Positions 8,513 through 39,390 of a DNA stretch of 64,000 bases are shown here, piece after piece. The DNA is from Negativicutes bacterium (GTDB lineage: Bacteria; Bacillota; Negativicutes; UBA1444): assembly GCA_963665275.2 (NCBI GenBank), contig CAXXIN010000007.1:640001-704000 (forward strand), read 5' to 3'. A model generated the notes under the pieces. The model was not told where the DNA came from. It made no database searches and saw only the letters and a list, made by a program, of their open reading frames with translations. How positions within the stretch are numbered: the first letter of the stretch is position 1; each line of letters begins with the position of its first letter. Both the position numbers and the translations under genes were made by a program.

Positions 8513-9067
8513 TTATGAGGCTTGTACGTCTTTGTGATATTGCTGCGTCTGCTGCATTTGCTGCAGATAGGCTTGCATGGTCTGCAGATCGGAATCAGTG
8601 GCTGTGCCGGCAGCAATTTTATCCAGGAAATCCTTCAGATAGTCTTCCTTTGTGGTGCTTCCAGTATTACTGGAGGCGCTGGCATCACTGATGAAAGACT
8701 GTTGGATCTGCTGCAAAAAGCTTTGCATATCCGATAGATCCGAATCCGTTGCCGTCCCCGACGCTACTTTGTCCAGAAAGCTCTTAATGGGATCTTTGCT
8801 GCCACTCGTTCCCGAGCCCGAAGCCGATCCCGTTTCAGCGCCATTCGTCGGTGGCGGTCCCTGCGGCGGAGGAGGCGGTGGCGCACTGCCCGACAATTCG
8901 AACGTGTCACCATCACTATTGCTAGTCACATTAGTCCGAGTAGTCGCCGCTGTTGTTGCCGTGGCAGAAGCGCCAGCGCTGGTAGCCGCGCTTGACGTCG
9001 CGTTGCTGTTTTTCAATGCATTCAGCAGGTACCACCAGTCATTTCCTCCTACGGATGATACATTCAC
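8513..9067 (-). CDS. Ser/Thr-rich hypothetical protein with a poly-Pro run and two tandem helical repeats; possible flagellar-T3S substrate
   Basis: AGGAGG RBS; PPPPPPQGPPP; repeat FLDK(V/I)A(S/A)GTATDSDL..MQ..LQQ twice. Confidence 0.75.
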   Translation of the reverse strand: MNVSSVGGNDWWYLLNALKNSNATSSAATSAGASATATTAATTRTNVTSNSDGDTFELSGSAPPPPPPQGPPPTNGAETGSASGSGTSGSKDPIKSFLDKVASGTATDSDLSDMQSFLQQIQQSFISDASASSNTGSTTKEDYLKDFLDKIAAGTATDSDLQTMQAYLQQMQQTQQYHKDVQAS

Positions 9068-9132
9068 CTTACTTCCTCCTTGTTGTTATGTGTTTCGCTA
9101 GATACAATAATCCTCTACCTTATTTCTATATC

Positions 9133-9199
9133 GTAGAATTTCCTTTGATTTAGCTTTGTTTACAAATCTTTTTCAAAGAATTTTTGAATACAATTTGAA
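9133..9199. promoter_or_regulatory. Three 11-bp-phased direct-repeat boxes in the divergent promoter region
   Basis: ATCAAA-n5-TTCTAC (-, 9149-9133), TACAAA-n5-TTCAAA (+, 9161-9177), TTCAAA-n5-TTCAAA (-, 9199-9183). Confidence 0.55.
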
Positions 9200-9233
9200 A
9201 TAGGATTTAAAACTGCAAATTACGAGGTGGCAT

Positions 9234-9920
9234 ATGAAATTATTGCTGGTTGACGATGAGATAAAACTCCTGGAAGCACTTTCACATACATTGAAAAAAT
9301 CCGGTTATGTAACAGATACCGCTGCTGACGGAGATACCGGCCTGGAACTGGCAATGAGCGGAATATACGACATTATCATCCTTGATCGTATGTTGCCTGG
9401 GCGGACCGGCATGGATATACTGAGGGAAATTCGACAACATTCCATTAACACGCCGGTACTGTTCCTGACCGCACGGGATTCGTCCGAAGATCGTGTAACG
9501 GGGCTGGATGCGGGCGCCGATGATTATCTGGTGAAGCCGTTTTCCAAAGAAGAACTGTTGGCCCGTCTGCGGGCTCTGACCAGACGGCAAACCAAAGACC
9601 TTACTGAAAATACCATAACCGCCAACAATTTGACGCTCAATCCGATGCATTGCGAAGTAACTCACAACGGGGAGACGATCAGGCTCACGGTTAAAGAGTC
9701 ATTACTGCTCGAATTGCTGATGCGAAATGCCGGCCAAGTTATCACAAAAGAGCGAATCCTGTATAAAGTCTGGAGTTTTTCTTCGGACATAGAGATTGCC
9801 AACGTCGATTTATATATCCACTATCTGAGGAAAAAATTACCGGGTCATTGCATCCGAACCATTCGCGGCGTCGGATACTGTCTGCAGGAGGACGATAATG
9901 TTTCGCAAACTGTTACTTAA
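9234..9920 (+). CDS. OmpR/PhoB-family response regulator
   Basis: REC domain (DD, LDRMLP, FLTA, DDYLVKPF) plus winged helix (TIRGVGY). Confidence 0.95.
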   Translation: MKLLLVDDEIKLLEALSHTLKKSGYVTDTAADGDTGLELAMSGIYDIIILDRMLPGRTGMDILREIRQHSINTPVLFLTARDSSEDRVTGLDAGADDYLVKPFSKEELLARLRALTRRQTKDLTENTITANNLTLNPMHCEVTHNGETIRLTVKESLLLELLMRNAGQVITKERILYKVWSFSSDIEIANVDLYIHYLRKKLPGHCIRTIRGVGYCLQEDDNVSQTVT

Positions 9921-11265
9921 ACTGACAGTGCTAAATGCCAGTGTCATAGGGATCCTGTTTTGCGCCCTGATTACCGGAGCCTACCTGTTTGCCCAGTATG
10001 ACTTAAACCGACACGTAGAATTCTTTCTTTCAAAAGTTGCAGCCGACATCAACGCCGGTCGACGTCCGCCAATGTTTCCCGGGCCTCCTGGTAGCGGCCC
10101 GACCAAGGACAGCTCTTTGGATTCAAGTTCAGGTTTCCCGCCTGATTCACCTGATCCATCCGGTCCTCCGCCACCGGGACTGCCGTTCGGCCCCCCGGAA
10201 GAACCCCGTGAAGGAGAAATGCCTCGGCCAACACTATTTTATGCCAAGCTGGATTCAACTGGCGCCATTGTCTCCACCTCGGCATCGTTGCCGCTTGCCA
10301 AGGACCAACTTGAAGAATTGGCGCAAGTGGTTGTCCAGAGACCTAAACCCAGTGGTCAGGTAACTTTTCAAAATATCGTATATTTTTATCATGTCACTGC
10401 ACGAACGGACTCTCCCGGACAACTGCTGTTGTTCCAAAACTTCGAGAGGGAGCGGGATGTCTTCCGCACAATAATGACCGCCCTGGTAGTCATCGGCGTG
10501 GTTTGTTTTATCGCCTCCTTGTTCGGCAGCCTATTTCTTGCGCGCCGGGCCATGAAACCGATTCAAAAATCCTGGACGCAGCAACGCGATTTTTTGGCGG
10601 ATGCCTCTCACGAACTTCGCACTCCGTTGGCTGTAATTCAGGCCAATCTGGATGTGATTCAAAGCAATTCCGACGAACTCGTCGCAGAGCAAACCCAGTG
10701 GATGAATAACATTGATGAAAGCGTCAAAGCGATGGCTTCTCTGGTTGAATCTCTGCTTTTTCTTGCGCGGATTGACTCACAGCAACACCCTCTCGACAAG
10801 AAACTGTTTTCACTGGACCAGGCAATCGCCACTGCGGTAGGGCCCTATAAACTCCTGGCCGCAACAAAAAAAGTCAGCCTTACGACTGACTTGGAGCAAA
10901 GCTTGGATTTTTATGGCGACGAAGGACGAATCAAGCAGGTTGTCGGCATTTTGCTCGACAATGCCATACGTCACACAACCGAAGGTGGCAGTGTCAATGT
11001 TGTGCTAAAACAAATCAACAAAAGTGTGCAACTCTCAGTATCCGATACGGGCGAAGGGATTCCATTGGATCAACTGAACAAAATATTCGAACGTTTTTAT
11101 CAAGTCGATCCCGCACGTAACAAAGGGGGCACAGGACTCGGACTGTCCATTGCAAAATGCATCGTGGAAAACCATGATGGGGGCATTCAGGCAAGTAGCA
11201 GCCCCGGCTCCGGCGCCAGTTTTTTTGTCCGCTTGCCCCTCGCAGTTCAACATCCGCTCAAATGA
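9898..11265 (+). CDS. Sensor histidine kinase with a proline-rich extracytoplasmic domain
   Basis: Two TM segments, ADASHELRTP H-box, N/G1/F/G2 boxes; 20 Pro in 57 aa between the TMs. Confidence 0.95.
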   Translation: MFRKLLLKLTVLNASVIGILFCALITGAYLFAQYDLNRHVEFFLSKVAADINAGRRPPMFPGPPGSGPTKDSSLDSSSGFPPDSPDPSGPPPPGLPFGPPEEPREGEMPRPTLFYAKLDSTGAIVSTSASLPLAKDQLEELAQVVVQRPKPSGQVTFQNIVYFYHVTARTDSPGQLLLFQNFERERDVFRTIMTALVVIGVVCFIASLFGSLFLARRAMKPIQKSWTQQRDFLADASHELRTPLAVIQANLDVIQSNSDELVAEQTQWMNNIDESVKAMASLVESLLFLARIDSQQHPLDKKLFSLDQAIATAVGPYKLLAATKKVSLTTDLEQSLDFYGDEGRIKQVVGILLDNAIRHTTEGGSVNVVLKQINKSVQLSVSDTGEGIPLDQLNKIFERFYQVDPARNKGGTGLGLSIAKCIVENHDGGIQASSSPGSGASFFVRLPLAVQHPLK

Positions 11266-11292
11266 TCCACTGGCAAAATTCATTCAAGCCCA

Positions 11293-12036
11293 CTATCGCA
11301 AGTATCCGTAAGGAATGCTTCGGGTCATAACACAAAATAGTCGTTGCTCTGATTTGTCCGCCAAGTGTTGTGTTCCAAACAACGCTACTTGCAATAAGGG
11401 ATTCTCCTCGTGATCGGCGCCCTTACGCAATTTATCCAGCAATTCTTTACCGCTCTTTGTGGGTCCAGACATCTCATACAAAATGATTCGGCGTCCTAAA
11501 ACCGCCAGCAGAGGAACGGTCAGCACCAATAGCCATTTTTCTGTTCCCTCATAGTAATTCATGAACCTCAGACTGCCTGCCACGATTAAGCAAGGAGCTA
11601 TTACCGACATTACCCACTGCCAGCGGGCCGGTGTTTTCCACCAGCCCGCTTGTTGCATGTTTTCTTCGATAGCCCGCAAGCTTTCAACCAACCGGCGCCG
11701 AGTTCCCCGCAGCGTTCGCACATTGCCCTGGATCGCCATGAATGCCTGCACAGCATCAGCTTCCATTTGCGAAAGTCCTACTCCTTGCACCGGCAATACC
11801 TGCACCAACAGCTTTCGACTCGGCCCGCCAGGTTTCAGTTCTATGATTTTTCGTTCGTGCAACTCGAAAATCACCGTCTCGACAACCGCGCCCAGCCCAC
11901 CTCTGAGCAAGGCTACTTCCAGGGCTTTAGGACAAAAAGAGTCCGTCCGCCGCCTTCGGCGACTTCGTCGAAGCAGTAGAACGGCAAACCCAATAATAGC
12001 TCCCACATAAAACAAATACATAATATACGGGTACAT
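11293..12036 (-). CDS. TIGR04222-like membrane protein
   Basis: N-terminal TM, EVALLRGG..AVVETVIFEL, two further TMs, PTKSGKELL, VALFG. Confidence 0.55.
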   Translation of the reverse strand: MYPYIMYLFYVGAIIGFAVLLLRRSRRRRRTDSFCPKALEVALLRGGLGAVVETVIFELHERKIIELKPGGPSRKLLVQVLPVQGVGLSQMEADAVQAFMAIQGNVRTLRGTRRRLVESLRAIEENMQQAGWWKTPARWQWVMSVIAPCLIVAGSLRFMNYYEGTEKWLLVLTVPLLAVLGRRIILYEMSGPTKSGKELLDKLRKGADHEENPLLQVALFGTQHLADKSEQRLFCVMTRSIPYGYLR

Positions 12037-12066: not shown

Positions 12067-12948
12067 TTATTTTATGTCGTAACTACCCAACACACTGATC
12101 TTCAAAGCGGAGGCATGCTTGGACAGCACCTCGCCAAGCGCTTCGCGCCGCCCATCGCCATCCAGTTCCACAACAAATATATATTCACCCAGCAGTGTCT
12201 TGGCCGGCCGATCGTGCACCGAAACCAGTTTGTAACCTGCTTTTTCCACATCGCGCAAAAATCCAGGAAAAGCAGCGGCAGGCCCCTGCGCGGTCAATGC
12301 GGTCCGCGTTTGGCCGAACTTTTGAAAAGGCTTAAGGGTCACGATCCAAAACCGGGTAACATTCGTTTTGGTCACTTCGATCTGTTTGGCCATCACGTCC
12401 AGTTTATAAGTAACCGCAGCCTGAGGCGACGCAATGGCCGCGACAGATTTATCGCCGGTTTCCGCGACTTTCCGAGCACCTTCAGCCGTGCTGGAAACTT
12501 CAATCAGTTTTGCTTCCGGCAGATTTACCTTCAGCCAGTCTTTTCCCTGCGCGATCCCTTGCGGGTGAGACAAAATTGTTTTAATGTCACTCAGTACAGT
12601 CCCTGGAACCACCATCAAGGTCTGCCTGATTGGCAAATTGACTTCACCGACCACCACAAATGCCGGATCGCTGATGACCCCGTCCAAATAATTGTACACC
12701 GGGCCGCCGACCGTATTTTCGATGGGCACAACTGCATACTGAAACTCACCTGATTTCACGCCAGCCAATGTTTCCGGCACCGTTTTCATCGGTACGAAAG
12801 TCTCTTTGTCACCAAAAAATAATATGGACGCCTCTTCAGTATAGGTTGCCGCAGGCCCCAGATAACCAACACTCGCGGAAACCGTGCCTGAAAGCAGTAG
12901 GATCATCGCTGCAAGAACCGCGAACACTTGAACGGAAACTTTTTTCAT
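12067..12948 (-). CDS. pheA: Prephenate dehydratase (PheA-type PDT plus ACT domain) with an N-terminal signal peptide
   Basis: GYLGPAATYTEEA, VVPIENT, SHPQ, SSTAEGA, NVTRF; leader MKK-hydrophobic-VSA. Confidence 0.8.
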   Translation of the reverse strand: MKKVSVQVFAVLAAMILLLSGTVSASVGYLGPAATYTEEASILFFGDKETFVPMKTVPETLAGVKSGEFQYAVVPIENTVGGPVYNYLDGVISDPAFVVVGEVNLPIRQTLMVVPGTVLSDIKTILSHPQGIAQGKDWLKVNLPEAKLIEVSSTAEGARKVAETGDKSVAAIASPQAAVTYKLDVMAKQIEVTKTNVTRFWIVTLKPFQKFGQTRTALTAQGPAAAFPGFLRDVEKAGYKLVSVHDRPAKTLLGEYIFVVELDGDGRREALGEVLSKHASALKISVLGSYDIK

Positions 12949-12995
12949 CTGATTAATCCCTTCCTTTTCTACTTTTCTACCGGATTATCTTGAGA

Positions 12996-13634
12996 TCATT
13001 CGCCGCCTGCCCAAAGTCTTTTTAAATCCCTTGCTGCAGCCGACGGATCAGAACTGTCCATGATCGCACTAACCACTGCCACCCCATCTACTCCAGCTTG
13101 TCGAACAAACGCTATATTTCCGGCCGTTATCCCGCCGATCGCAACAACCGGAATGCGAACCGCATTTTTGATTTGCATCAATATTTCCATTGGCAGCAAA
13201 GCTTTACCCGGTTTGGTTCCTGTTGGGTACACAGCTCCGCTCCCTAGATAATCGGCTCCAGCTTTCTGAGCCGCAAGCGCATCCGCCACCGTTGCCGCTG
13301 TGGCGCCCAAGATTTTATCCGGTCCCAGCAACCGCCGTGCTACTTCAACCGGCAAGTCCTCCTGTCCAACATGCAGGCCATCCGCATCCACAGCCAACGC
13401 AATATCCAGACGATCGTTGATAATCAAAGGAACTCGAACCTTGCGAGCGATCTCCTTGACCCGCAGCGCCAGTTCATAAAACTCTCTCGATGTAGCCGTC
13501 TTCTCGCGCAGTTGCACCAGTGTCACTCCGCCATCAATAGCGCGCGCCACTTTCTTGCAAAACCCTTCAATATCTCTGGTTCCGCCATCCGTCACCAGGT
13601 ACAGCGAATACTCAATCTTTGATTTATTCAACAC
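12996..13634 (-). CDS. thiE: Thiamine-phosphate synthase
   Basis: LYLVTD, QLREK, INDR, HVGQED, AIGGI. Confidence 0.95.
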   Translation of the reverse strand: MLNKSKIEYSLYLVTDGGTRDIEGFCKKVARAIDGGVTLVQLREKTATSREFYELALRVKEIARKVRVPLIINDRLDIALAVDADGLHVGQEDLPVEVARRLLGPDKILGATAATVADALAAQKAGADYLGSGAVYPTGTKPGKALLPMEILMQIKNAVRIPVVAIGGITAGNIAFVRQAGVDGVAVVSAIMDSSDPSAAARDLKRLWAGGE

Positions 13635-14439
13635 TACATCTCCCCTGCCTCAACACATCTTCTGCAGTCAAAATTGAAATGGCATCCACCAACCGGATCC
13701 GGAACGATCCAGTCCCTTCTCCCGGCAGCAAAGATGCGCAAGCCATCTCGCCCGCAATTCCCATAAACATCACGCCAGCTGTCACCGCGCTCAGCGATGC
13801 CCCCATCGCCGCACAACAGGAAGCAACGAGCGAAGTCGTCATACAGCCGGTCCCTGTGACCCGCGACATCATGGCATCCCCATTGTCTATCCGGCAGACA
13901 GTCCGCCCGTCACTAACAAAGTCGGTTGGCCCGGTTGCCGCTACCAAACATCCCATTTGTTGCGCCGCCTGACGGACTGTTTCGGCCGCATTGTCAGCCG
14001 ATGCCAGCGAGTCGATTCCGCGCATCGCCGCGTATACTCCCGTCATACGCTGAATCTCCGCCAAATTCCCCCGCACCGCCGTCAATCGGATACACAGAGC
14101 GATCTGCTCGACAGTTCGGGTTCGGACCTGAGTAAAACCGACACCAACGGGATCAAGTATAACCGGGATTCCCATTGCATTGGCCTTTTTACCGGCAAGC
14201 AGCATGGATTCAAGCATGCGGGTATTCGGAGTGCCCAGATTCAATATCAAGGCTGCCGACTGGGCTACAACCTCCTCCACCTCGACCGGATCATTAGCCA
14301 TGATCGGGGAGGCTCCAATAGCCAGAGTAACGTTGGCGCAATCGTTGATGCTGATATAGTTGGTGATATGATGGACGATCGGCTTCCGAATCCTGACCTG
14401 CTCAATGCCAGAGGCAATCTGTTCCATCAGGCTCATCAT
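13624..14439 (-). CDS. thiM: Hydroxyethylthiazole kinase
   Basis: HHITNY, GASPIMA, LDPVGVG, RGN..EI, TGTGC. Confidence 0.95.
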   Translation of the reverse strand: MMSLMEQIASGIEQVRIRKPIVHHITNYISINDCANVTLAIGASPIMANDPVEVEEVVAQSAALILNLGTPNTRMLESMLLAGKKANAMGIPVILDPVGVGFTQVRTRTVEQIALCIRLTAVRGNLAEIQRMTGVYAAMRGIDSLASADNAAETVRQAAQQMGCLVAATGPTDFVSDGRTVCRIDNGDAMMSRVTGTGCMTTSLVASCCAAMGASLSAVTAGVMFMGIAGEMACASLLPGEGTGSFRIRLVDAISILTAEDVLRQGRCSVE

Positions 14440-14475
14440 ACAGCCACCGGCTCTATCGTAAGCACCCTAATGTTT

Positions 14476-15282
14476 TTATTCATCAAGCAACCCTGCTTTT
14501 TGATAAAGCTCATAGAAATGGTGCGTCGGTCCCACGCCTTTGCCGATCGCCAAGGCATGTTCGATCGCAATGGTAATATATTTTTTCGCTGCGGCAACTG
14601 CTTGTTCCACTGGCAATCCTTTCGCCAAATTCGCCGCAATAGCCGAAGACAATGTACAGCCGGTTCCATGGGTATTTTGCGTCGGAACGCGTGGTGCTTC
14701 AAACCTCACAAAACGGTGTCCATCAAACAATATATCGGTTGCATCTTCCGTTCGGTGTCCGCCCTTCAAAAGAACATTTTTCGGGCCCATCGCATGAATG
14801 GCCCGAGCGGCCTCTTCCATGTCGGCAATGGTTTCGATTTTTCGATGCACCAGAACCTCGGCTTCGGGAATATTCGGTGTGACCACTGTGGCCAACGGCA
14901 GCAGCTCAGAAATCAGGACGGCTTCCGCATCGGGTTGCAACAGGTGATAGCCGCTTTTGGAGATCATCACAGGATCGACTACAATCAAGTCCGGTGTATA
15001 TTTTTTCAATCCGGCAGCAATCACGCGAATGGTTTCCGGTTGTGACACCATCCCCACTTTGACCGCATCAGCCCCTATATCGTCAAAAATCGCTTCGATC
15101 TGTTTGGTTATAATCTCTGGCCAAACATCCTGAACAGCAGTTACGCCCAACGTATTTTGGGCCGTTATTGCCGTAATAACACTCATGCCAAAAACGCCAT
15201 GCGCCGCAAAAGTTTTCAGATCCGCCTGAATCCCCGCACCGCCGCTCGAATCCGATCCAGCGATCGTTAACGCCTTTTTCAT
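14476..15282 (-). CDS. thiD: HMP/HMP-P kinase
   Basis: IAGSDSSGGAGIQADLK, DPVM, THGTGCT; start trimmed to MKKALT. Confidence 0.95.
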   Translation of the reverse strand: MKKALTIAGSDSSGGAGIQADLKTFAAHGVFGMSVITAITAQNTLGVTAVQDVWPEIITKQIEAIFDDIGADAVKVGMVSQPETIRVIAAGLKKYTPDLIVVDPVMISKSGYHLLQPDAEAVLISELLPLATVVTPNIPEAEVLVHRKIETIADMEEAARAIHAMGPKNVLLKGGHRTEDATDILFDGHRFVRFEAPRVPTQNTHGTGCTLSSAIAANLAKGLPVEQAVAAAKKYITIAIEHALAIGKGVGPTHHFYELYQKAGLLDE

Positions 15283-15458
15283 GCTCCCAATCCTCTTTTC
15301 TCCTTGCTTATCTTTCAATACCAGCGTATATTCTTCGCTTTTTCCGGCCAAAATCCCTGCCCGCTTCGGCGGTAGGTTCAATTGTTCTATGAAAAAATCA
15401 CTGCAAGTCAGGCGGTTTCCTGCAGCAGTGAAATGAGACTGGATTGATTCAGTTTGAG

Positions 15459-30156: not shown

Positions 30157-30173
30157 TTAGATTTTTGTTTGAT
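30157..30173 (-). promoter_or_regulatory. Direct-repeat box upstream of the flgD operon
   Basis: Minus strand ATCAAA-caaaa-ATCTAA. Confidence 0.5.
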
Positions 30174-30302
30174 TATTTGCTGGAATAGATTTATATTCTC
30201 TTTGAAAATAAAAATATGCTCCGCAATAAGACCCAAAGCCCTATTCTACAGCTTGTTCTCGAACATTATAAATTTTGAATGATTTTTTCATAGCTAATAA
30301 AA

Positions 30303-30336
30303 ATTAAATGATTTTCTAATATATTCCCCCTATAAT
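30303..30336 (+). promoter_or_regulatory. Direct-repeat box and TATAAT upstream of the orphan regulator
   Basis: ATTAAA-tgatt-TTCTAA at 30303-30319; TATAAT at 30331. Confidence 0.5.
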
Positions 30337-30401
30337 TCAAATGGAAAGCTAAGATGGCAAATTTTACTACATGGACGTAGCCACACTTGGGGGAGACTCT
30401 C

Positions 30402-31058: not shown

Positions 31059-31153
31059 TCATTCACCGAACCGCGTGTGCCGCGCAGAATTTTTTCTGCG
31101 CATTTTTTTTTACCACCAATATTTTTTGATAAAAATTTTTATGGGTATTCGAT

Positions 31154-31170
31154 TTCAAATATTCTTCTAA
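31154..31170 (+). promoter_or_regulatory. Direct-repeat box upstream of flagellin
   Basis: TTCAAA-tattc-TTCTAA, with AATAAT 16 nt downstream. Confidence 0.5.
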
Positions 31171-31286
31171 TTTTTTACATCGAACAAATAATTAGCCGGG
31201 GAAGGTTGAGGTGATTCCAGTGAACTAAGCAGCAGAAAACACCAGGGTAAGCCACCGACTCATGAGCTGGGGTAAGCTCAAAAAGG

Positions 31287-31321
31287 GGAGTAAGGATACT
31301 CCACCTAAAAATTCAAGGAGG
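31287..31321 (+). promoter_or_regulatory. CsrA-type binding hairpin and SD in the flagellin leader
   Basis: GGAGTA-AGGA-TACTCC hairpin with GGA in the loop, then CAAGGAGG, as in Firmicute hag leaders. Confidence 0.7.
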
Positions 31322-31329
31322 AAAAAATC

Positions 31330-32553
31330 ATGATTATCAATCACAACATGGCGTCTTTGAACACATTGAACTCCTTAAACGCCAACAGTACGACCATGCA
31401 GAAATCCTTAGCCAAACTGTCTTCCGGTCTGCGGATCAACAGTGCAGCCGATGATGCTGCCGGACTCGCGATTTCAGAAAAAATGCGCGGTCAGATCAGC
31501 GGCCTCGACACCGCCAGTTCCAACGCCCAGAATGGTATATCGCTCCTGCAGACAGCGGAAGGTGCGCTCGATGAAACCACCAGCATTCTACAACGTATGC
31601 GTGAGTTGGCGGTAGAATCTGCTAGCGATACCATTACCGACGATGATCGAGATGATATCCAGTCTGAGTTCTCGGAACTAACCGAAGAAATTGACCGAAT
31701 TGCCTCTACCACGCAATTCAACACCAAAAACCTGCTCGACGGCTCGATGAGTAGTGATAATACCACCGTTACTGCGAACGTATCTGAAAACACTTCTTTC
31801 GCATCTGCAACCACATCCGGCACTCTCGCGACCGCTTTGACGGACTCCAGCGGCAATTCGTTGGGAATTACCGAAGGCGATACCATTTCACTCAGTTATG
31901 TCAAAGATGGTGCTCTGCAAACGACCTCATTCACAGTCACTTCCGCTACCACCGTTGCAGATCTCGATACAGGAGATTTTGCAATAACAACCGCTACGAC
32001 AGGCACACTGACTGCTACGGCGACCACCGGCGGAACAACAACTGCGGTGTATGGATTAACTTATACTGTAACGGATTCTGATGGCGACAAGAGAACCACG
32101 GCCAGCGATGCGTTATCAGATTTTACGCAGACCACTGCCGCCAATAATTTGCGTGCTGATGGCTCGGCCACAATTTTGATTGGCGCCAACACTGGACAAG
32201 ATTTCAATATTTCAATCGATGCCATGGACGCCAGCTCACTTGGCGTAGCCAATCTTACCGTCACATCCCAGACGGCAGCCGAAGTGGCCATCTCGGTCAT
32301 CGACACCGCAACTTCAATGGTGTCGGCTGCACGTGGTAAAATGGGCGCCGAAGAAAATCGTTTGGAACACACCATTAACAACTTAACTACAGCCAGCGAA
32401 AACACCACGGCAGCTGAGTCCCGTATTCGCGATGTAGATATGGCGGCTGAAATGGCAGAGTACACCAAGCTCAGTGTTATCAACCAAGCTGCCACTGCTA
32501 TGTTGGCACAATCCAATCAGTTGCCCCAACAAGTTCTGTCACTTCTGCAATAA
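31330..32553 (+). CDS. fliC: Flagellin
   Basis: MIINHN, KLSSGLRINSAADDAAGLAISEKMR, ESRIRDVDMA, QQVLSLLQ. Confidence 0.97.
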   Translation: MIINHNMASLNTLNSLNANSTTMQKSLAKLSSGLRINSAADDAAGLAISEKMRGQISGLDTASSNAQNGISLLQTAEGALDETTSILQRMRELAVESASDTITDDDRDDIQSEFSELTEEIDRIASTTQFNTKNLLDGSMSSDNTTVTANVSENTSFASATTSGTLATALTDSSGNSLGITEGDTISLSYVKDGALQTTSFTVTSATTVADLDTGDFAITTATTGTLTATATTGGTTTAVYGLTYTVTDSDGDKRTTASDALSDFTQTTAANNLRADGSATILIGANTGQDFNISIDAMDASSLGVANLTVTSQTAAEVAISVIDTATSMVSAARGKMGAEENRLEHTINNLTTASENTTAAESRIRDVDMAAEMAEYTKLSVINQAATAMLAQSNQLPQQVLSLLQ

Positions 32554-32597
32554 CCTCACAATCTCAACCTGACCCGGTAACAAATTCTCATAAACAT

Positions 32598-32626
32598 AAG
32601 GGATGTACTCTTGTACATCCCTTGAT
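32598..32626 (+). terminator. Hairpin after fliC
   Basis: AAGGGATGTAC-tctt-GTACATCCCTT. Confidence 0.65.
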
Positions 32627-32655
32627 TTATATCTCAACGAAAGGCTGTTAAATTT

Positions 32656-34611
32656 ATGGCAACAATTTCTCTATGTGTTATCACCAAAAACGAACATGAT
32701 AATATTGCCCGTTGCCTGCGTAGCGTTAAAAACGATGTCGCTGAAATGATCGTTGTCGATACAGGCTCTTCGGATGATACGGTCTCCATTGCCCAATCAT
32801 TGGGTGCTAAAATTTTTCATTACACTTGGGCTAATGATTTTTCCGCCGCACGTAACTTTGCATTGGATCAGGCTGTCGGGGACTGGATCATATTTTTGGA
32901 TGCCGACGAATATTTTGAGCAAGGTACAAGCACTGCGCTTCCAGATGTTGTGCGGAAAATTCACGGGAATCGAAAAATTGATGCCGCTTGCATATTAATG
33001 AAACATATGGAATCAATTGATGGAGCCGTGATCGCGCACACCCAACTTGTTCGCCTTTTTCGTCATTCCCGGCTGATCCGATATCACGGGCGAATTCATG
33101 AAGCGATATACAAGCAGGGACGCAGTCCTGTTGCAGTTTATGTGCCGGAATCAACGTTAGCTATTCGGCATACCGGTTACTCGCAATCCAGATTACCTGA
33201 AAAAGCTCTTCGGAATCTTCCACTATTGGAGCAGGAAGTCGCAGACAATGCAACCAATTGTCTGACTTACTATCATATCAGTCAATCACATATTCTATTG
33301 CATAATTATGAGCAGGCTGCTCATTACGCTTTGAAAGCACTCGAAAATAATGAAGAAATTATGTTTTCCAACGCCCGCTATAAGCCTTACGTTTTTTATA
33401 TCAAAAGCATGCTATTATTGAACTTATTCATGCAAGACAAAGTCGCAACGATGGTTGCAGAGGCATTGGAAAAGCATCCTGACCATCCAGAAATATTGCA
33501 CTGCATCGGCATGTATCATCAAAAATGCGGTCGCTACTCCAAAGCATTACCGTTTTTAGTGCAATCCTTGGTTGCGAATGAAAACTTTCACAGCAACTTG
33601 GACAATGAATTCTTGAAAATCAAGGGACAAGTTCAAGAGGAAATTGCCGTTCTTCACGATAAGATGAATCATGTGTCGCAAGCCTTCGATTATACCATTG
33701 CCGCCCTTAAATCTGACAAGCATCTTGGTTCGTCTTTGGCGCGGCTTCTCTCTCAAGTCAAAACGCAAAAACCTGCCGACATTGTTCAATTGCTTGACAG
33801 TCTCTACAACGTTCAAAACAAGGCTGATGTTGATTTTTTAGTTCGCAATCTCGCTGTGTTGAATCAGAAACACCTGTTCGCCCACTATCTCAAGTTGCTA
33901 TCCACACAGTTCCAGGAAAACTATTTTATCGGTATGAAATTCCTTGTATGCGATAAATACGAAGCGGCTTTTCAGTGTTTTGCGACGCTCGTTGAGCATT
34001 CTAATCCAGATGGCGCCGAGCTATTCGCAGTGGTTTCTTGCCTTTTGGCCGACCGCCCAGATTGGCTGTCCAGCTTAGTATCACCAGCCGACTCTCCATT
34101 GCGGAAAATCGCCAGTATATATTTCCAGTTGGATTCAGCAGTTGATCTGTCCGATGTGAATTTTTCATCCTACTCCACGCTATTTCTAAATTTCATCCAC
34201 TTGAGTTCAGAAGAACAATTATTTCGGCTACTGCAAGTTTCTTCTCGTTTCTTGCAACCAGGCGCCCCTCTGAAAGTGTTGGATCATCTGATAAAGTATC
34301 ACGTATATCCGCCTGTTTTTCATTTTTGTTTAGAGCGGCTGCAAACAACAACAATTACTTCCGACTTGGCCGGACAGTATTCTATGCGTGCCGGTTTTTG
34401 TTGCTATAAAGTTAAGGACTGGGAACATGCTGTATTTTTTTTCAGACAAGCCTTACCACACGAAACGTCTCGAAGTGCCGCAGTAGAGTTATTAACCTGG
34501 TCGTATCAACAATGCCTCGATCCTACTGTACGCAAAAAAATAGAAGCCATCTGCGAAGAATACAATCTAGACCTTGCTCTGCCGGCGCATACTCCAGTTA
34601 ACGGGGTGTGA
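32656..34611 (+). CDS. GT2 glycosyltransferase with TPR repeats (flagellin glycosylation type)
   Basis: ISLCVITKNE, VDTGSSD, DFSAARN, FLDADE, GRIHE, HTGY; helical C-terminus; follows fliC. Confidence 0.88.
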   Translation: MATISLCVITKNEHDNIARCLRSVKNDVAEMIVVDTGSSDDTVSIAQSLGAKIFHYTWANDFSAARNFALDQAVGDWIIFLDADEYFEQGTSTALPDVVRKIHGNRKIDAACILMKHMESIDGAVIAHTQLVRLFRHSRLIRYHGRIHEAIYKQGRSPVAVYVPESTLAIRHTGYSQSRLPEKALRNLPLLEQEVADNATNCLTYYHISQSHILLHNYEQAAHYALKALENNEEIMFSNARYKPYVFYIKSMLLLNLFMQDKVATMVAEALEKHPDHPEILHCIGMYHQKCGRYSKALPFLVQSLVANENFHSNLDNEFLKIKGQVQEEIAVLHDKMNHVSQAFDYTIAALKSDKHLGSSLARLLSQVKTQKPADIVQLLDSLYNVQNKADVDFLVRNLAVLNQKHLFAHYLKLLSTQFQENYFIGMKFLVCDKYEAAFQCFATLVEHSNPDGAELFAVVSCLLADRPDWLSSLVSPADSPLRKIASIYFQLDSAVDLSDVNFSSYSTLFLNFIHLSSEEQLFRLLQVSSRFLQPGAPLKVLDHLIKYHVYPPVFHFCLERLQTTTITSDLAGQYSMRAGFCCYKVKDWEHAVFFFRQALPHETSRSAAVELLTWSYQQCLDPTVRKKIEAICEEYNLDLALPAHTPVNGV

Positions 34612-34643
34612 TCACGGCACAGCATCCCTGTTTGTCACAAAAC

Positions 34644-36710
34644 TCAACCTATCTTGCTGTTTGCAAGGGTCTTTGCTTTTTCGTTGTTCACTAATTCAAT
34701 GATCGATTTTGCTCTCTTAATTTCTTGGGGATATTGCGCAGCACCCGCACTTGAAACGAATTTTGCAAAAGCCTCCACTGCCGGATCCACTTCACCCAGT
34801 TTCATATGAAGTTCGGCTTTATTAAAGAGCCAAATCGGATTAGCGCCAAAGAGCAAGGCAATTTCAGTGCATGATAATGCTTCTTTGAACATATTGTTTT
34901 TGAAAAGCACTTGCACTAAATTTCCCAGTGGTTCCAAGGTGCTGATAACATTTTTCTTTTGCACAGAATATTCTTGGGCCAAGCACGCAGCATTGCGTGC
35001 TAAATTTTTAGTATAGTTTATTGTTTTGGGGCTCGTATATTTCAATGCAATGGGCAGAATATGCGATAAATCAACGGGTTTCTTTTGCGTTTTCACCTCA
35101 GCATTTTTGTCGGCAAGATCATAATGCTTAGCCATTTCCGCCAACATATGAGCGGTTACCTCGCCCCCCTCCATCAAAGAAGTAAACAGTACTTCCCAAT
35201 GGAAACCCTCACCCGCTTTTCGGTCATATCTTGATAACGAATTTATCCATCCTACATATATTTTTGACTTTAACTGCTCTATCGACCGCAATGGAAAATG
35301 GGCAATCCTAAGCTCTTCTATGACAGCCTTACCTATACTGTTTCCGTCATGATGTTGGATTACAACATCATGCGACCCCATTGCCAATTGAAGGCTCTGC
35401 CTCTGCATAACATACTTGCTAACCATTACTTTATAAAACTTTTCATATTGTTCTTGCCGCATATGCTGCATTTTTAATAACGCAACCGGCTCTTCCGGAT
35501 CATCGTTGCCATCTGGAATATATGTCCGCCATTTTACATAATGGAGTTTTTGCAAATCAACTTCTTCCAATACGACTCTGGGATTTTCCGACTCATTCGG
35601 GACAATAAATTCGTCAGCATCCAGAGGAATAATCAAATCCGGTTGAAACGTTTTCATTGCCTCGTGAAGAATTTGGCTCATTTTGGCATCTTGCAAATAA
35701 TTTGTCTCAGGGTCATCGTATATATATAGTGGAAATCCTTCCGAACGTAAATTTTCCAGAATGGACTTGGTATCATCACAACTTCCGTTATCTACGACCA
35801 CCATTCCATCAAAAATATTCATGTGATATCGCACGAAAGACTCAATAATATCTTCTTCGTTTTTAATCATACTGATGGAGAATATCTTTCTTTTCGGCGT
35901 CGCAAAGCTACATTTTCTACATAACACGGAAACCGTGTCATGGTCTAAATACTGGCGAATATATTCTTTTTTTTCGTTCAGTAAAATGTCATCATATTCA
36001 TCTTGCATGAGGTTTCCCATAATATATTCCATGCCGTAATCCATGCAGCAAAGTACCACTCTGCCGTCCGGCAACAGCACGTTATGATTCAAATCAATAC
36101 CGGACAAACAACACTGAATTCGTCCACGGTGGTGAACCCGATTCATTTTGATCCCGCCGCTATCCTCAACATTGCCGGCGCGGTCATGAATAGACAGACG
36201 CATATTAACATCGACAATTTTTTGAACTTCTGACGGAGTCGGCCCATGTGCACAAAATTTCATGATTTTCTTCAGCCTATCGGGCGCCGTTGAAACAATG
36301 CACTGCAATAATTGCAAGTATTCCGCTGTAACCATGATTTTTGAATTGCCATCGATATCCGGCAGATGAATGACAAAATCCGTGAAGTCAATGCCCTTAA
36401 TGCGATCAAAATCATCTAATGTCATACCAACTAACGTAGTGTATACCGCAATTCGATGGCCTTTTTGCGCTGCATACAAAAGCATCTGGGTTGCATCCGG
36501 GTTAAGCCAAGGCTCCGCCATACCTGAAAAATCAATCCGGACACTGGCGGGAACTTTATCAATGCAATTTTTATAGGTTTCCATGGTTAAAACATTAACA
36601 TTAGAGCATTTTGAGTATTCTTGTATCAATTTCAATTGCGGGCAAAGCACACAATCCACTTTACAGCCGATCCGAGTTGTAATTTCCAAAGTGCCAGCGG
36701 ATTTTATCAT
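34644..36710 (-). CDS. Radical SAM/SPASM-like domain fused to a GT2-like glycosyltransferase and a TPR tail
   Basis: CKVDCVLC (CxxxCxxC), FSGMAEP, DGRVVLCCMD..GNL..CRKC; then MIKNEEDII, VDNGS, PLDADEF, HFPLRS. Confidence 0.8.
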   Translation of the reverse strand: MIKSAGTLEITTRIGCKVDCVLCPQLKLIQEYSKCSNVNVLTMETYKNCIDKVPASVRIDFSGMAEPWLNPDATQMLLYAAQKGHRIAVYTTLVGMTLDDFDRIKGIDFTDFVIHLPDIDGNSKIMVTAEYLQLLQCIVSTAPDRLKKIMKFCAHGPTPSEVQKIVDVNMRLSIHDRAGNVEDSGGIKMNRVHHRGRIQCCLSGIDLNHNVLLPDGRVVLCCMDYGMEYIMGNLMQDEYDDILLNEKKEYIRQYLDHDTVSVLCRKCSFATPKRKIFSISMIKNEEDIIESFVRYHMNIFDGMVVVDNGSCDDTKSILENLRSEGFPLYIYDDPETNYLQDAKMSQILHEAMKTFQPDLIIPLDADEFIVPNESENPRVVLEEVDLQKLHYVKWRTYIPDGNDDPEEPVALLKMQHMRQEQYEKFYKVMVSKYVMQRQSLQLAMGSHDVVIQHHDGNSIGKAVIEELRIAHFPLRSIEQLKSKIYVGWINSLSRYDRKAGEGFHWEVLFTSLMEGGEVTAHMLAEMAKHYDLADKNAEVKTQKKPVDLSHILPIALKYTSPKTINYTKNLARNAACLAQEYSVQKKNVISTLEPLGNLVQVLFKNNMFKEALSCTEIALLFGANPIWLFNKAELHMKLGEVDPAVEAFAKFVSSAGAAQYPQEIKRAKSIIELVNNEKAKTLANSKIG

Positions 36711-36730
36711 TTACGTTTCCTCCCAAGAAG

Positions 36731-38503
36731 TCATTCAGCTTCGCCCGATGAATCCAATTTTTGTTGAGCTTTTGCCGAATTAATTCGTTCGATCAAGAGC
36801 AGATCATTGTCAGTTTTATTGATAATTCCATGCATATAATTTAGTGCTGCATCATATTCTTGTAGTCTGAATAGAACATAGCTGAAATTATATAGCGTAT
36901 TCGAATCTTCGGAATTAATTCGCAAAGCTTGTTGCAAATATGGAATAACACAGTCGAATTTTTTTTCGGCAAAATTAGCTGACGCGATTCTATTTAGCAC
37001 ATCAGTTTGATTGGAAACATCCCTATCGATGATCTCTATGACTGTTTCAATTGGGTATCGATTGAGAGCCTTAATGTTTTCCATCACATTGATATCTCGT
37101 GCAAGTTCCAGCAGTATTTCCCTTAATTCATCAAGCACGAACCCTTTGGGGGCACTGATCAGATATTGATATGCCAAATATTGATCCTTAAATTTATTTT
37201 CAGTCATGGCGCTGATGGTATCAACATACTGTTTGTCACTCTCAGAGCAAGCAATTTGCGTTGTACTGCACTGCAACTGGCTAAACCCGACGCCAAAAAA
37301 CATTTTTTTTATTTCATTTAGCGTAAAAAAACGTAAATGTGTTTTATCGAGAATCCCTGCATTTTCGTAGTTCCAATGCCCGTACAGCAAATTCCGAATC
37401 ACACTGAAATGCATCACATTGGGAATGCTGGCAAGAATTTTTCCACCCGGCGCTAAATATTGATAAAGCATCTGTAGTGCTCCCCAAGGGTTTTTCAGAT
37501 GCTCTAAAATATCAGCTAAAATAATATACTGAAAAAAACGTTTGGGATATGGCAATTCCAACGCTTCAACATCCGCAGCGCACACGTCGGCAAAGGTACT
37601 GGCATCCTGCGCTGCATTCACATTTAATTCAATTCCATATAATGCTGCGCTACGAAATTGATTCCGTATCTGTAACAAAGTGGCCCCACAAGCACAACCG
37701 ACTTCTAGAACTCGAAAAGCTTCATCTCGCGGCGCATCAATAAAATTGATAATTTCTTGGCGAATCATCATTGAGTAGTTGGATGAATAGCCCCATTTAT
37801 TTTCGAACTTTTGAGCGTTGGTTTGCAACAATTGGTTATACTCTGAAGCTTTGTCCCGAAAAGACACACTGCCAAAATGGTGAATAAAAGTGTCCCGGCA
37901 AAGCAGCAGTTTATACCCTGCCCGTCTGATTCTTACCGAATAGTCGTCGTCTTCAAAATTGCCTGGTGAAAACATTTCATCCAATAGTCCAACTTTTTCC
38001 ACAACTTCTTTTTTGATTAGTAAACAAAAACCCACTAATTTTAATCTTTCGTCCCACTTAGCAGCAGTTGATATATTGTAATCCTTGGCGAATCGCTGCA
38101 TCTCCTGAATCGATTTATATTGCACAGCAATAGTTTGACCATACGAGCAATTATTCGTCACTGCGCCGACCGCGCCAATCTCGGGATTACTATATAAAGC
38201 TTGCAATAAATTGCTAAGCCAATTGTTCGTTACTATCACGTCATTATTCAGCAACAAGACATTATCGCCTTTGGCAATCGTCATTCCCTGATTACACCCT
38301 GTAGGGAATCCCATATTTTCGCGGTTGAATATTGTTCGCACGTCTTTTTGCTGTTTCAACCATTTTTCGGTGCCATCTGTGGAATGGTTGTCCACAATAA
38401 CAATTTCATAGGTTCCCTGTTTAGTATATTTTCTGATGCTGTCGATGCATTGCCGCGTGTACTCAATTTTATTATATGTAAGAATAACAATGCTGGTTTT
38501 CAT
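36731..38503 (-). CDS. GT2 glycosyltransferase fused to a SAM-dependent methyltransferase and a TPR tail
   Basis: SIVILTYN, LLNND, GNFEDDDY; LEVGCACG, DILEHL, GILDKTHLRFFT. Confidence 0.88.
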   Translation of the reverse strand: MKTSIVILTYNKIEYTRQCIDSIRKYTKQGTYEIVIVDNHSTDGTEKWLKQQKDVRTIFNRENMGFPTGCNQGMTIAKGDNVLLLNNDVIVTNNWLSNLLQALYSNPEIGAVGAVTNNCSYGQTIAVQYKSIQEMQRFAKDYNISTAAKWDERLKLVGFCLLIKKEVVEKVGLLDEMFSPGNFEDDDYSVRIRRAGYKLLLCRDTFIHHFGSVSFRDKASEYNQLLQTNAQKFENKWGYSSNYSMMIRQEIINFIDAPRDEAFRVLEVGCACGATLLQIRNQFRSAALYGIELNVNAAQDASTFADVCAADVEALELPYPKRFFQYIILADILEHLKNPWGALQMLYQYLAPGGKILASIPNVMHFSVIRNLLYGHWNYENAGILDKTHLRFFTLNEIKKMFFGVGFSQLQCSTTQIACSESDKQYVDTISAMTENKFKDQYLAYQYLISAPKGFVLDELREILLELARDINVMENIKALNRYPIETVIEIIDRDVSNQTDVLNRIASANFAEKKFDCVIPYLQQALRINSEDSNTLYNFSYVLFRLQEYDAALNYMHGIINKTDNDLLLIERINSAKAQQKLDSSGEAE

Positions 38504-38575
38504 GTTGCTCCTCTATGCATAAGTTACGCAAATTAATTGACAGCTGTACCTGATAAATAATGAATTCACTTTTAA

Positions 38576-38619
38576 ATAATCCCCCGTTGGCCAAAAACGC
38601 CGTCGGGGGATTATTTTTT
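38576..38619 (-). terminator. Hairpin downstream of the EF-hand gene
   Basis: AATAATCCCCCG...CGGGGGATTATT. Confidence 0.55.
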
Positions 38620-38668
38620 CTTAGTAATTACTCAAACTTTATACGTTGATAACTTCAAAAAGAATACC

Positions 38669-39295
38669 TTATACGCTGGTTACCCCGGCATTGCCGCCCA
38701 TCGCCGTAGCATATTCAGATTCCGTTAAGCCGCCCGACCCATCCTGATCAAGGCTGTTGAACAAATTTGCCGCCATTTCTTCACTTACGTCTTCGGGGCG
38801 AGCCGCTGCCAGTTCATCGGCGCTTACGACACCGTCTTGGTTAGTATCCAGTTCACTGAACGACTGTGAATCAGTTGACGATCCTGAATCGGACGACGTA
38901 GACGAAGGCGGCGGCGGTGGCATATTATCCATGGCTGCAAATTCCGATTCCGTCAAGGAACTCGAACTATCCGAGTCAATGGTGCTATAAAGATTAGCAG
39001 CCATTTCTTCACTTACATCACTGGGTCGCGCTGATGTGAACTCCGTTTCGCTGAGTGATCCGTCTCCGTCGGTATCCATCTTGCTAAACATTTCCGATGC
39101 CGACACCATGGAAGATTTTGCCGCATCAGACAACTGGAATGTATCTCCGTCCGAATTGCTGGCAACAACTCCCGATAATGCGGATGTCGAGCTTTGCGAT
39201 GACTCTTCACTCGACTTGGAACTCTTTGTTCCACTATTGGCATACAGGCTGAGCAACAGTGCGGAGGAAGTGTTGTTCACGGAAGAAATGCTCAT
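38669..39295 (-). CDS. Ser-rich EF-hand protein (four EF-like loops) with a poly-Pro linker; possible flagellar-T3S substrate
   Basis: DTDGDGSLSETE, DSDSSSSLTESE, DTNQDGVVSADE, DQDGSGGLTESE; duplicated ARP.DVSEEMAANL; MPPPPP; start MSISSV. Confidence 0.85.
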   Translation of the reverse strand: MSISSVNNTSSALLLSLYANSGTKSSKSSEESSQSSTSALSGVVASNSDGDTFQLSDAAKSSMVSASEMFSKMDTDGDGSLSETEFTSARPSDVSEEMAANLYSTIDSDSSSSLTESEFAAMDNMPPPPPSSTSSDSGSSTDSQSFSELDTNQDGVVSADELAAARPEDVSEEMAANLFNSLDQDGSGGLTESEYATAMGGNAGVTSV

Positions 39296-39350
39296 TTTCA
39301 CACGCCTTCTTTCATATTTTTGGGACACGCTTTTGAAAATGTCCTTAGTC

Positions 39351-39390
39351 ATTATAATTGTCGCCGTTTTCTCTTTGAATATCATTTAAT
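39351..39390 (-). promoter_or_regulatory. Direct-repeat box occupying the -35 position, with a TATAAT -10
   Basis: Minus strand ATTAAA-tgata-TTCAAA, then 17 nt to TATAAT. Confidence 0.65.

Follow-up and report, generated by a model that had tools for sequence, protein, structure and literature searches.

A proline-poor set of rod-distal flagellar genes linked to proline-rich sensor kinases and a MacAB-type exporter in Negativicutes

A region of a Negativicutes genome (assembly GCA_963665275.2) brings together flagellar proteins almost devoid of proline (Pro) and sensor kinases, an exporter and small proteins that carry Pro runs. Do these two extremes belong to one system and, if so, what would that system do? 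The region lies at positions 8513–39390 of a stretch of 64,000 nucleotides (contig CAXXIN010000007.1, positions 640,001–704,000), which is called the window below and to which coordinates without a contig name refer. A first-pass annotation had proposed a defence against tannins or other polyphenols, with Pro-rich kinases as sensors, Pro-run proteins as secreted sponges and a replacement hook and filament of low binding. The reading that we prefer, with a probability of about 0.55, is a conserved Negativicutes island of two linked modules, in which a swappable distal flagellar set would be mounted on the primary basal body. Module 1 would comprise FlgD, FlgE, two FlgK and FlgL, FliD, a candidate chaperone, a flagellin and glycosyltransferases. 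Module 2 would be envelope-stress-like, with a response regulator and histidine kinase (RR2/HK2) acting through a direct-repeat box, CTGTAACAA, on a MacAB-type exporter and on an exported protein, p20926.

Pfam and NCBIfam scans of the open reading frames (ORFs) of the window define 23 proteins in the region. The genes of the flagellar cassette are found, on the minus strand, for the hook cap FlgD (29629–30054; Pfam FlgD and FlgD tudor domain), the hook protein FlgE (28111–29517; FlgE-family matches in Pfam and NCBIfam), FlgK1 (26612–28111; TIGR02492, 268 bits for a cut-off of 170.75), the second FlgK paralog FlgK2 (25038–26588; same model, 294.5 bits), the hook–filament junction protein FlgL (23893–25083; TIGR02550, 208.9 bits for a cut-off of 127.2) and the filament cap FliD (21937–23871; Pfam FliD_N and FliD_C). 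The cassette flagellin is on the plus strand (31330–32553; Pfam Flagellin_N and Flagellin_C). FlgK1, FlgK2, FlgL, FliD, FlgD and the flagellin are above the cut-offs of their family models, as are the Pfam FlgE domains; FlgE reaches 257 bits with the FlgEFG subfamily model (cut-off 70) and stays under the cut-offs of the FlgE equivalog models. Three glycosyltransferase-type genes identified with Pfam follow: GT2-TPR (32656–34611, plus strand), SPASM/GT2 (34644–36710, minus strand) and GT2-methyltransferase (36731–38503, minus strand). Judging from their position, they probably serve in flagellin glycosylation; the GT2-TPR gene is kept beside the flagellin gene in two genomes of the same genus (G005 and G009).

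What the cassette duplicates is precisely the rod-distal part of the flagellum; genes for basal body, motor or export are absent from it. Nor does it hold the only flagellar structural genes of the genome, in agreement with the first-pass annotation: a primary set is present, with FlgD and FlgE on contig C9 and FlgK, FlgL, FliC, FliD and FliS on contig C19. In this genome, one FlhA, one FliF and one FliS were found, so the cassette lacks the FlhA and FliF of its own that would mark a complete secondary flagellar system of the laf or flag-2 type. One FlhA locus occurs also in each of 10 other cassette-bearing genomes (11 of 11 in total), five of which are assemblies of one or two contigs. In those five, FlgK_D1 genes number three in each of four genomes and five in a genome with two cassettes, as for one primary FlgK plus two per cassette. 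With a single FlhA, FliF and FliS, a second hook and filament would need the normal basal body and, with a single export gate, the cassette subunits would be exported by the cell's usual flagellar type III apparatus and assemble on its usual rod into a second hook, junction and filament. The proposed replacement of hook and filament on a normal basal body, as an assembly that might form, gains comparative support from these counts.

The external subunits are indeed nearly Pro-free and acidic, as had been noticed. The Pro content is 0.2% in FliD and FliC, 0.5% in FlgL, 0.6% in FlgK1, 0.8% in FlgK2, 0.9% in FlgE and 1.4% in FlgD, and the isoelectric points (pI) of the seven proteins are 4.1–4.2. 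None of them exceeds the 1.5th percentile of Pro content in a set of 3221 ORFs with 200 or more amino acids (median 4.4%), a background that is a crude proxy proteome with spurious ORFs included. The primary paralogs have 0.2–3.7% Pro and pI values of 4.6–5.5. In the pooled proteins, the contents for cassette versus primary are 9.0% vs. 5.7% (Asp), 5.9% vs. 3.4% (Glu), 2.2% vs. 4.2% (Lys), 4.5% vs. 7.3% (Asn), 3.5% vs. 5.2% (Gln), 0.6% vs. 2.3% (Pro) and 27.5% vs. 22.1% (Ser plus Thr); the cassette pool is also higher in Tyr and lower in Arg and Gly. The second structure would be strongly acidic, rich in Ser and Thr, and poor in Pro, Lys, Asn and Gln. Set against the primary paralogs, the expected Pro contrast holds for hook, junction and caps and fails for the flagellin: with 0.2% Pro in the primary flagellin already, flagellin itself shows no contrast, which must reside in the hook, junction and cap proteins. 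The identity between cassette and primary copies is 24–43% for FlgE, FlgK, FlgL and FliD, and 58% for the flagellin (the primary one being on C19).

The same shift is seen in other genomes. Cassette FlgE has there 0.7–1.9% Pro versus 2.8–4.0% in six primary FlgE, and primary-type FlgE spans 1.1–5.9% across all twelve genomes examined. FlgK, FlgL and FliD behave likewise, with pI values of 4.1–4.5 versus 4.3–7.1. In the FlgE alignment, seven columns have Pro in at least four of the six primary sequences, and five of these seven are Pro-free in all eight cassette FlgE. In a tree of FlgE (with a midpoint root only, and with six of the 12 primary-type sequences taken from genomes without mapped flagellar sets), the nine cassette FlgE form one clade apart from the 12 primary-type FlgE (SH-aLRT 100). 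All these conserved features, the contrast in composition included, are traits of one paralog lineage and not the result of many independent events.

With FlgK2 as marker (E ≤ 1e-75), the cassette is present in 49 of 301 Negativicutes genomes and in 21 of the 93 genera sampled; within its own genus, three of 11 other genomes have it. A search with FlgK1 of genome contigs gave an uncultured Veillonellaceae metagenome-assembled genome (MAG) as sole named relative. Seventeen cassette loci were compared, from 15 genomes and eight GTDB families (locus L001 comes from a MAG without family label). The order FlgE-FlgK1-FlgK2-FlgL is syntenic in 16 of the 17, the seventeenth, on contig C20 of the same genome as the window, being truncated within FlgK2 where the contig ends. 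All but one of the 17 loci have intact reading frames. Wherever the stretch extends to them, FlgD, FliD and a small helical protein flank the FlgE–FlgL run.

In the window, that small protein is p21512 (21512–21940, minus strand), which is basic, Pro-free and predicted as a three-helix bundle (predicted local distance difference test score, pLDDT, 81.6); eight members of its family were aligned. By BLAST, a relative follows the cassette FliD in 14 of the 17 loci, a count in which L014 is included by a blastp match missed by tblastn, L064 has an unmatched ORF of 139 amino acids at that place, and L022 and L001 end earlier. The protein has no Pfam or NCBIfam match and no PDB fold match at E ≤ 0.001; FliT (6ch2_E) comes at rank 19 of the fold search with E 0.76. 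It is a candidate FliT- or FlgN-like chaperone. As for FliS, that assignment was set aside: a separate ORF with a FliS-like N-terminus, recognised by eye, follows in L015, L036, L057 and L060.

Some genomes hold two or three copies of the cassette (G058, G156, G068 and others). The genome studied here has a third copy of the island, incomplete and outside the window, at C20:9909–17484. There, paralogs of p8513 (described below) and of the regulator–kinase pair RR1/HK1, a TIGR04222-domain protein, a p21512-like protein, FliD, FlgL and the start of FlgK2 follow each other contiguously. The two copies are 49–87% identical, except for the p8513 and p21512-like paralogs (38–40%). The C20 genes for FliD and for the p21512-like protein are each split over two frames by a frameshift, either because the copy is decaying or because of an assembly error. 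In the window, the HK1 unit and the cassette are parted by 9.4 kb containing pheA/thiEMD, MacAB and RR2/HK2; from the contiguity on C20, the window units are the same ones merely separated.

The RR1/HK1 unit is tied to the cassette by its distribution. RR1 (9234–9920, plus strand; Pfam Response_reg and Trans_reg_C) is an OmpR-family response regulator and HK1 (9898–11265, plus strand; Pfam HisKA and HATPase_c) a sensor histidine kinase. A third regulator, RR3 (30387–31058, plus strand; Pfam), is an orphan of the OmpR family that diverges from flgD and has the flagellin gene directly after it, a position kept in G005 and G009; it is 55.5% identical to RR1. The domains of OmpR/PhoB-type two-component systems (receiver and winged helix in the regulators, HisKA and HATPase in the kinases) are present in RR1, RR2, RR3, HK1 and HK2. 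The periplasmic loop of HK1 has, directly after the first transmembrane segment (TM1), a Pro-rich stalk; Pro makes up 25.7% of the first 70 loop residues. The same build is found in 21 of 21 homologs, 20 of them chosen from 68 other genomes with a match: TM1, a short helix, 20–50 Pro-rich residues, a conserved domain of FFFVK type and TM2, with Pro at 8.6–25.7% over the same 70 residues. In the genome's 19 other kinases, the region N-terminal to the catalytic core has 0–5% Pro.

The sensor part of HK1 (residues 1–215, used as query) is present in 69 of the 301 genomes. By hand cross-tabulation, these are 48 of the 49 cassette-positive and 21 of the 252 cassette-negative genomes, and the lone cassette-positive genome without it is an assembly 86% complete. 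HK1 and FlgK2 lie on the same contig, no more than 40 kb apart, in 25 genomes; in 20 of these the distance is at most 11 kb, and nine families are represented (hand comparison). The order of genes around the cassette varies between families, and the adjacency to HK1/RR1 and to MacAB persists. The co-occurrence that had been predicted between a Pro-rich kinase and a Pro-poor flagellar set is thus found, together with physical adjacency. A TIGR04222-domain membrane protein (11293–12036, minus strand; NCBIfam, 76.2 bits for a cut-off of 43) adjoins the HK1-type kinase both in the window and on C20 (where the paralog is 49% identical); none was seen beside HK1 in the loci of other families examined.

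The exporter of module 2 is made of a MacB permease (15459–16685), an ATPase (16695–17387) and the HlyD-family adaptor MacA (17409–18494), all on the minus strand and assigned with Pfam. The parts of a MacAB-TolC pump found in the window are the MacB periplasmic core with an FtsX permease, the ABC ATPase and the adaptor, which ends in a PPP tail; no gene for an outer-membrane efflux protein (OEP) is present in 8513–39390, and OEP genes adjoin the orthologous pumps in G156. In that one-contig assembly, at loci L057/L058 (G156:C1:4620000–4656000), MacAB pumps and TolC-like OEP genes are seen on both flanks of the cassette. The cassette includes FlaG, a FliS-like ORF, a single HK1 and three genes for RR1-type regulators; the same genome has another cassette at a different place. 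Divergent from macA are RR2 (18685–19353) and HK2 (19350–20837; with a HAMP domain and PPPPP in its sensor domain), both on the plus strand and assigned with Pfam. The gene for p20926 comes next (20926–21450, plus strand).

Two matches to CTGTAAYAA-NN-CTGTAACAA occur in the window (0 expected), upstream of macA and p20926 and each facing its gene. One reads CTGTAACAA-AG-CTGTAACAA (18542–18561, minus strand), 48 nt upstream of macA and followed by a third, weaker repeat; the other reads CTGTAATAA-TC-CTGTAACAA (20851–20870, plus strand), 56 nt upstream of p20926. When 385 kb from other loci were scanned with up to two mismatches allowed, all three matches fell at equivalent positions: in G124 before macA and before a p20926-like gene, and in G136 before macA. 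The box, from which control by RR2 may be deduced, is thus conserved at its presumed targets in three families. Through the shared box, RR2/HK2, MacAB and p20926 would form a unit with a common operator, resembling stress regulons of the BaeSR or Cpx type. The box was not found upstream of flagellar genes, either in the window or in the other loci searched.

The protein p20926 has 12.1% Pro with PP and GPGP runs, a signal-peptide-like N-terminus and an LTQDQ motif. In the AlphaFold model, a helical core (residues 49–143, pLDDT 70–88) is flanked by disordered tails rich in Pro and Gly. No Pfam match appears up to E = 5, the Spy, CpxP and ZraP models included, and the best hits of a fold search against 48,161 chains are unrelated helical proteins (Z at most 6.4). 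In the atlas search, the Spy/CpxP and heavy-metal-resistance rows score 0.78, which makes them no more than leads (threshold 0.9). The protein is a candidate periplasmic stress protein.

Nearly all genomes of the class have a MacB-type permease (292 of 301, E ≤ 1e-110). For the closest MacB orthologs, the distance to the cassette FlgK2 is no more than 31 kb in at least 20 genomes, from five families (hand comparison), and RR2/HK2 orthologs adjoin MacAB in six other loci. MacAB, RR2/HK2 and proteins like p20926 and p8513 recur beside the cassette in other families. The grouping of cassette, kinases and MacAB as one system, put forward in the first-pass annotation, has in this recurring linkage a comparative basis.

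PPP or a longer run is present in five of the 23 proteins of the island (p8513, HK1, the MacA tail, HK2 and an EF-hand protein) versus 113 of the 3221 ORFs of at least 200 amino acids (3.5%; binomial P = 0.001). The Pro runs that had been listed for the kinases, the S/T-rich proteins, the MacA tail and p20926 are therefore real, p20926 having only its shorter PP and GPGP. The acidic, S/T-rich p8513 (8513–9067, minus strand; Pfam EAD10, E 1.1e-7) has no signal peptide; it has a PPPPPP..PPP linker and two EAD10-like helical repeats, and its family has three members in the genome. The EF-hand protein (38669–39295, minus strand, with the ORF extending to 39385; Pfam EF-hand_7 and others) has two EF-hand pairs, and its Pro stretch (PPPPP) is the linker between them. 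An N-terminal module MxxSSV...SNSDGDTF[E/Q]LS and a poly-Pro linker are common to p8513, its C20 paralog and the EF-hand protein. In G005 and G009 the EF-hand orthologs begin at the MSISSV motif, so the ORF of 238 amino acids most likely starts at M31 (39295), 30 codons later. Within the extension thus removed (39296–39385), an 11-mer, TTCAAAGAGAA, and a TATAAT box are seen; the same 11-mer occurs upstream of flgD. With the XopAW model (NF041410), the EF-hand protein scores 93.2 bits, under the cut-off of 120, in a match that overlaps the EF-hands.

Relatives of p8513 or of the EF-hand protein are found beside cassettes in G005, G009, G060 (one FlxA-like) and G121 (EAD10 repeats). In G121, a p8513 relative of 433 amino acids is beside the cassette two-component system (EAD10, 62.9 bits); in G060, an S/T/Q-rich protein beside the cassette flagellin gene matches FlxA (PF14282) with E 3.8e-12. 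The window p8513 does not reach the FlxA model, and gave unnamed clusters only in the atlas search.

Several units had been said to share one upstream repeat. The repeats exist, and they are of two different kinds, one for the MacAB/p20926 pair (the RR2 box) and one for the p8513/flagellin pair; a box common to MacAB/p20926 and to the flagellar genes was not found in these searches. The second kind, TTCWAAW-N4-TTCWAAW, is a candidate RR1/RR3 box proposed from sequence. It is a direct repeat with an 11-bp period, TTCAAATTGTATTCAAAA, pointing towards p8513 (9182–9199, minus strand), and TTCAAATATTCTTCTAAT upstream of the flagellin gene (31154–31171, plus strand). With C also allowed at the last base, five matches occur in the 3.97-Mb genome. 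Upstream of the flagellin gene, the box is kept in G005 and G009.

Expression of the cassette is probably under dedicated control by HK1, RR1 and the orphan RR3, and in other families a sigma-28-like promoter would precede flgD. Starting from a sigma-28 (FliA/SigD) consensus of the type TAAA-N15-GCCGATAT, the pattern TAAA-N15-16-[GCT]CGA[TA]A was searched on both strands of 355 kb. It has 12 matches, four of which are at 45–64 nt upstream of a cassette flgD (14 checked); it occurs also about 65 nt upstream of two RR1-type genes. If these promoters are real, the cassette hook operon is in other families a late flagellar operon, which is unusual for hook genes. For the window fliC, a degenerate candidate, TAAA-N16-CGATTT, was read by eye. 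A loose sigma-28 pattern gave 379 matches in the whole genome and is uninformative.

The leader of the cassette flagellin contains a conserved hairpin, GGAGTAAGGATACTCC (31287–31302, plus strand), with GGA in the loop and beside an AAGGAGG ribosome-binding site. A similar pair of hairpin and AAGGAGG is seen by eye in the leader of the primary flagellin (C19, upstream of 166527). CsrA control of the hag leader in B. subtilis uses such a pair of sites, and by analogy the pair suggests CsrA-type translational control of both flagellins. In three other families (G060, G058 and G031), a long GGACGA...TCGTCC hairpin with a T-run is present upstream of the cassette flagellin, at approximately L013:7260–7470, L021:3700–3910 and 8640–8800, and L023:8740–8950. 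The hairpin is followed by an identical element of 30 nt, TAATAAGCCGAGTGGCCATGAGGCTTGTTATA, a variant of which lies upstream of flgD in G058. Hairpin and element could be an operator or a leader element. In an Rfam search at gathering thresholds of the window and four cassette loci, only a glmS ribozyme was matched (window 50684–50835, minus strand, 109.6 bits), and the leader of G060, G058 and G031 remained without match.

Between the HK1 unit and the MacAB unit are the genes for prephenate dehydratase (pheA), thiE, thiM and thiD (12067–15381; Pfam), housekeeping genes unrelated to the island; with the flanking units contiguous on C20, they look like an insertion into it. A phage- or plasmid-borne cassette was considered; the Pfam matches in 7822–41095 include no integrase or mobility genes. 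The GC content is 0.41–0.45 over the flagellin and glycosyltransferase genes (30000–38500) versus about 0.50 elsewhere, a drop typical of glycosylation islands.

How else could these observations be accounted for? The cassette proteins might co-assemble with the primary ones, in a mixed hook, junction and filament, as minor components that fine-tune mechanics in the way of minor flagellins in other bacteria. The flagellins, at 58% identity, could conceivably co-polymerise. In Azospirillum brasilense, FliC2 contributes to the polar flagellum and is encoded in a partial cluster that includes a regulator (PMC12826043). On the other hand, every distal part is duplicated, both caps included, as for a complete matched structure, and FlgE, FlgK, FlgL and FliD are far less similar to their primary counterparts. 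In Shewanella piezotolerans, moreover, two FlgL paralogs do not cross-complement (PMC5178100), which fits a need to swap the distal parts as a matched set; we regard co-assembly as unlikely. A reading without any joint function, in which drift, or a benefit of variety in antigens or phage receptors, preserves old redundant paralogs and the neighbourhood is inherited synteny, could invoke the two or three copies in some genomes, the two frameshifts on C20 and the patchy presence in the genus (three of 11). Against it, 16 of the 17 loci have kept intact frames, and HK1/RR1 and MacAB remain neighbours of the cassette despite a rearranged gene order; synteny that is simply inherited would not hold such adjacency across nine families (HK1) and five (MacAB). 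This makes it decidedly improbable. The cassette could also be mainly a secretion conduit, with a hook and filament channel for export, by the flagellar type III apparatus, of the S/T-rich proteins without signal (the p8513 family, the EF-hand protein, the FlxA-like proteins). The N-termini of p8513, its C20 paralog and the EF-hand protein are S/T-rich and resemble those of the cassette FlgD and FliD; the EF-hand protein resembles the type III-secreted calcium-binding effectors of XopAW type; and the cassettes of G060 and G121 have FlxA-like and EAD10-repeat proteins as neighbours. The N-terminal likeness is, however, of low complexity, the XopAW match is under threshold and largely over the EF-hands, and such proteins are beside only six of the 17 loci, so that a conduit as main function seems very improbable.

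The least probable explanation weighed is the original one: a kinase loop that senses tannin, Pro-run decoys, MacAB exporting the decoys or the agent, and a hook and filament of low binding. The contrast in composition and the Pro runs are real and conserved, the components are linked across families, and tannins bind preferentially to Pro-rich and basic proteins. In Acinetobacter baumannii, loss of baeR leads to sensitivity to tannic acid, and tannic acid induces macB (PMC4498774). The same composition would equally fit adaptation to pH, ionic strength, cationic peptides, proteases or reactive carbonyls, and none of the results is specific to tannin as trigger. The Pro-rich stretches sit as stalks of kinases or as the linker of the EF-hand protein, and neither p8513 nor the EF-hand protein has a signal peptide, which speaks against secreted sponges. 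MacAB and p20926 have their own RR2 box, not found upstream of flagellar genes. By analogy with the BaeSR–MacAB–tannic acid case, tannin is a possible agent for the efflux half only. A broader surface-defence scheme would have two envelope sensors that detect an agent fouling or damaging exposed proteins (tannin being one of several candidates) and respond with MacAB-TolC efflux, a periplasmic helper and a chemically inert, acidic, glycosylated distal flagellum, poor in Lys, Pro, Asn and Gln, on a basal body of the existing design, the EF-hand and p8513-type proteins leaving by flagellar export; we hold this integrated form to be doubtful, as a tentative extension.

Several points weigh against the two-module island with a swappable distal set. 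The genome of the window is 92.6% complete, so that its assembly might have missed a second basal-body set; that five cassette genomes are assembled in one or two contigs argues against this. HK1 is present in 21 cassette-negative genomes and adjoins MacB in three of them (G089, G109 and G172); its ancestral or principal target may therefore be MacAB and not the cassette. Two of the 17 loci (L036 and L059) have no RR1/HK1-type gene near the cassette, HK1 being 319 kb away in the L059 genome, and in L015 the regulator nearby shares only 37% identity with RR2, and the kinase only 29% with HK1. The sampled genomes are related and not independent, and co-occurrence counts such as 48 of 49 overstate the support. 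For the RR1/RR3 box, the two window matches for 0.02 expected are partly circular, the box having been derived from these two sites, and it was not found in other families. The upstream region of the window flgD has no sigma-28-like match, RR3 being divergent there instead, and the strict pattern matched no fliC upstream region.

If the two-module island is what we suppose, the boundary between rod and hook is a natural exchange point of the flagellum, the distal parts evolve together as one matched set, and a sensed condition can lead bacteria to alter the chemistry of the exposed flagellum. The cassette is kept in about one sixth of the sampled Negativicutes genomes. Its two FlgK raise a structural question on the hook–filament junction, and the family of kinases with a Pro-rich stalk, together with the MacAB link, offers genetic handles for finding the signal.

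How does the island compare with known systems? Complete secondary systems (the lateral flagella of Vibrio and Shewanella, flag-2 of Enterobacterales) likewise have a second, separately regulated structural set. They carry, however, their own basal body, export apparatus and motor, whereas the cassette duplicates rod-distal parts only. At the other end are cases on one basal body: the fliC/fljB phase variation of Salmonella, and the extra FlgE or FlgD paralogs of Helicobacter and Campylobacter. Those swap or add one or two proteins, whereas the cassette duplicates the whole distal assembly, with its caps and a junction of three proteins. The p8513-type proteins have a build similar to that of FlxA-like proteins (PF14282), for which we know of no established function; p8513 itself falls outside that family model.

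In S. piezotolerans too, distal parts are not freely interchangeable between sets (PMC5178100). In the literature searched (full texts, excluding subscription journals and supplements), no such cassette is described in Negativicutes, and no description of a three-protein junction with two FlgK was found; the closest case found is the RpoE6 cluster FlgK-FlgL-FliD-FliS-FliC2 of A. brasilense (PMC12826043). It is likewise a partial distal cluster with an internal regulator and a likely glycosylated flagellin. It differs in being without FlgD and FlgE, in the single FlgK listed for it, in its pair of extracytoplasmic function (ECF) sigma and anti-sigma factors and in belonging to Alphaproteobacteria (PMC12826043). 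The second module has its likeness in the BaeSR and CpxAR regulons, with an OmpR-family two-component system beside a tripartite exporter (PMC4498774 for BaeSR and MacAB). A small exported helical protein (Spy or CpxP in those regulons) and a direct-repeat box before both targets add to the likeness. The module differs in a pump of MacAB type and not of the resistance–nodulation–division (RND) type, and in p20926, without a Pfam match to Spy, CpxP or ZraP. As a spare set of everything beyond the rod, the cassette would be intermediate between complete second machines and single-flagellin swaps.

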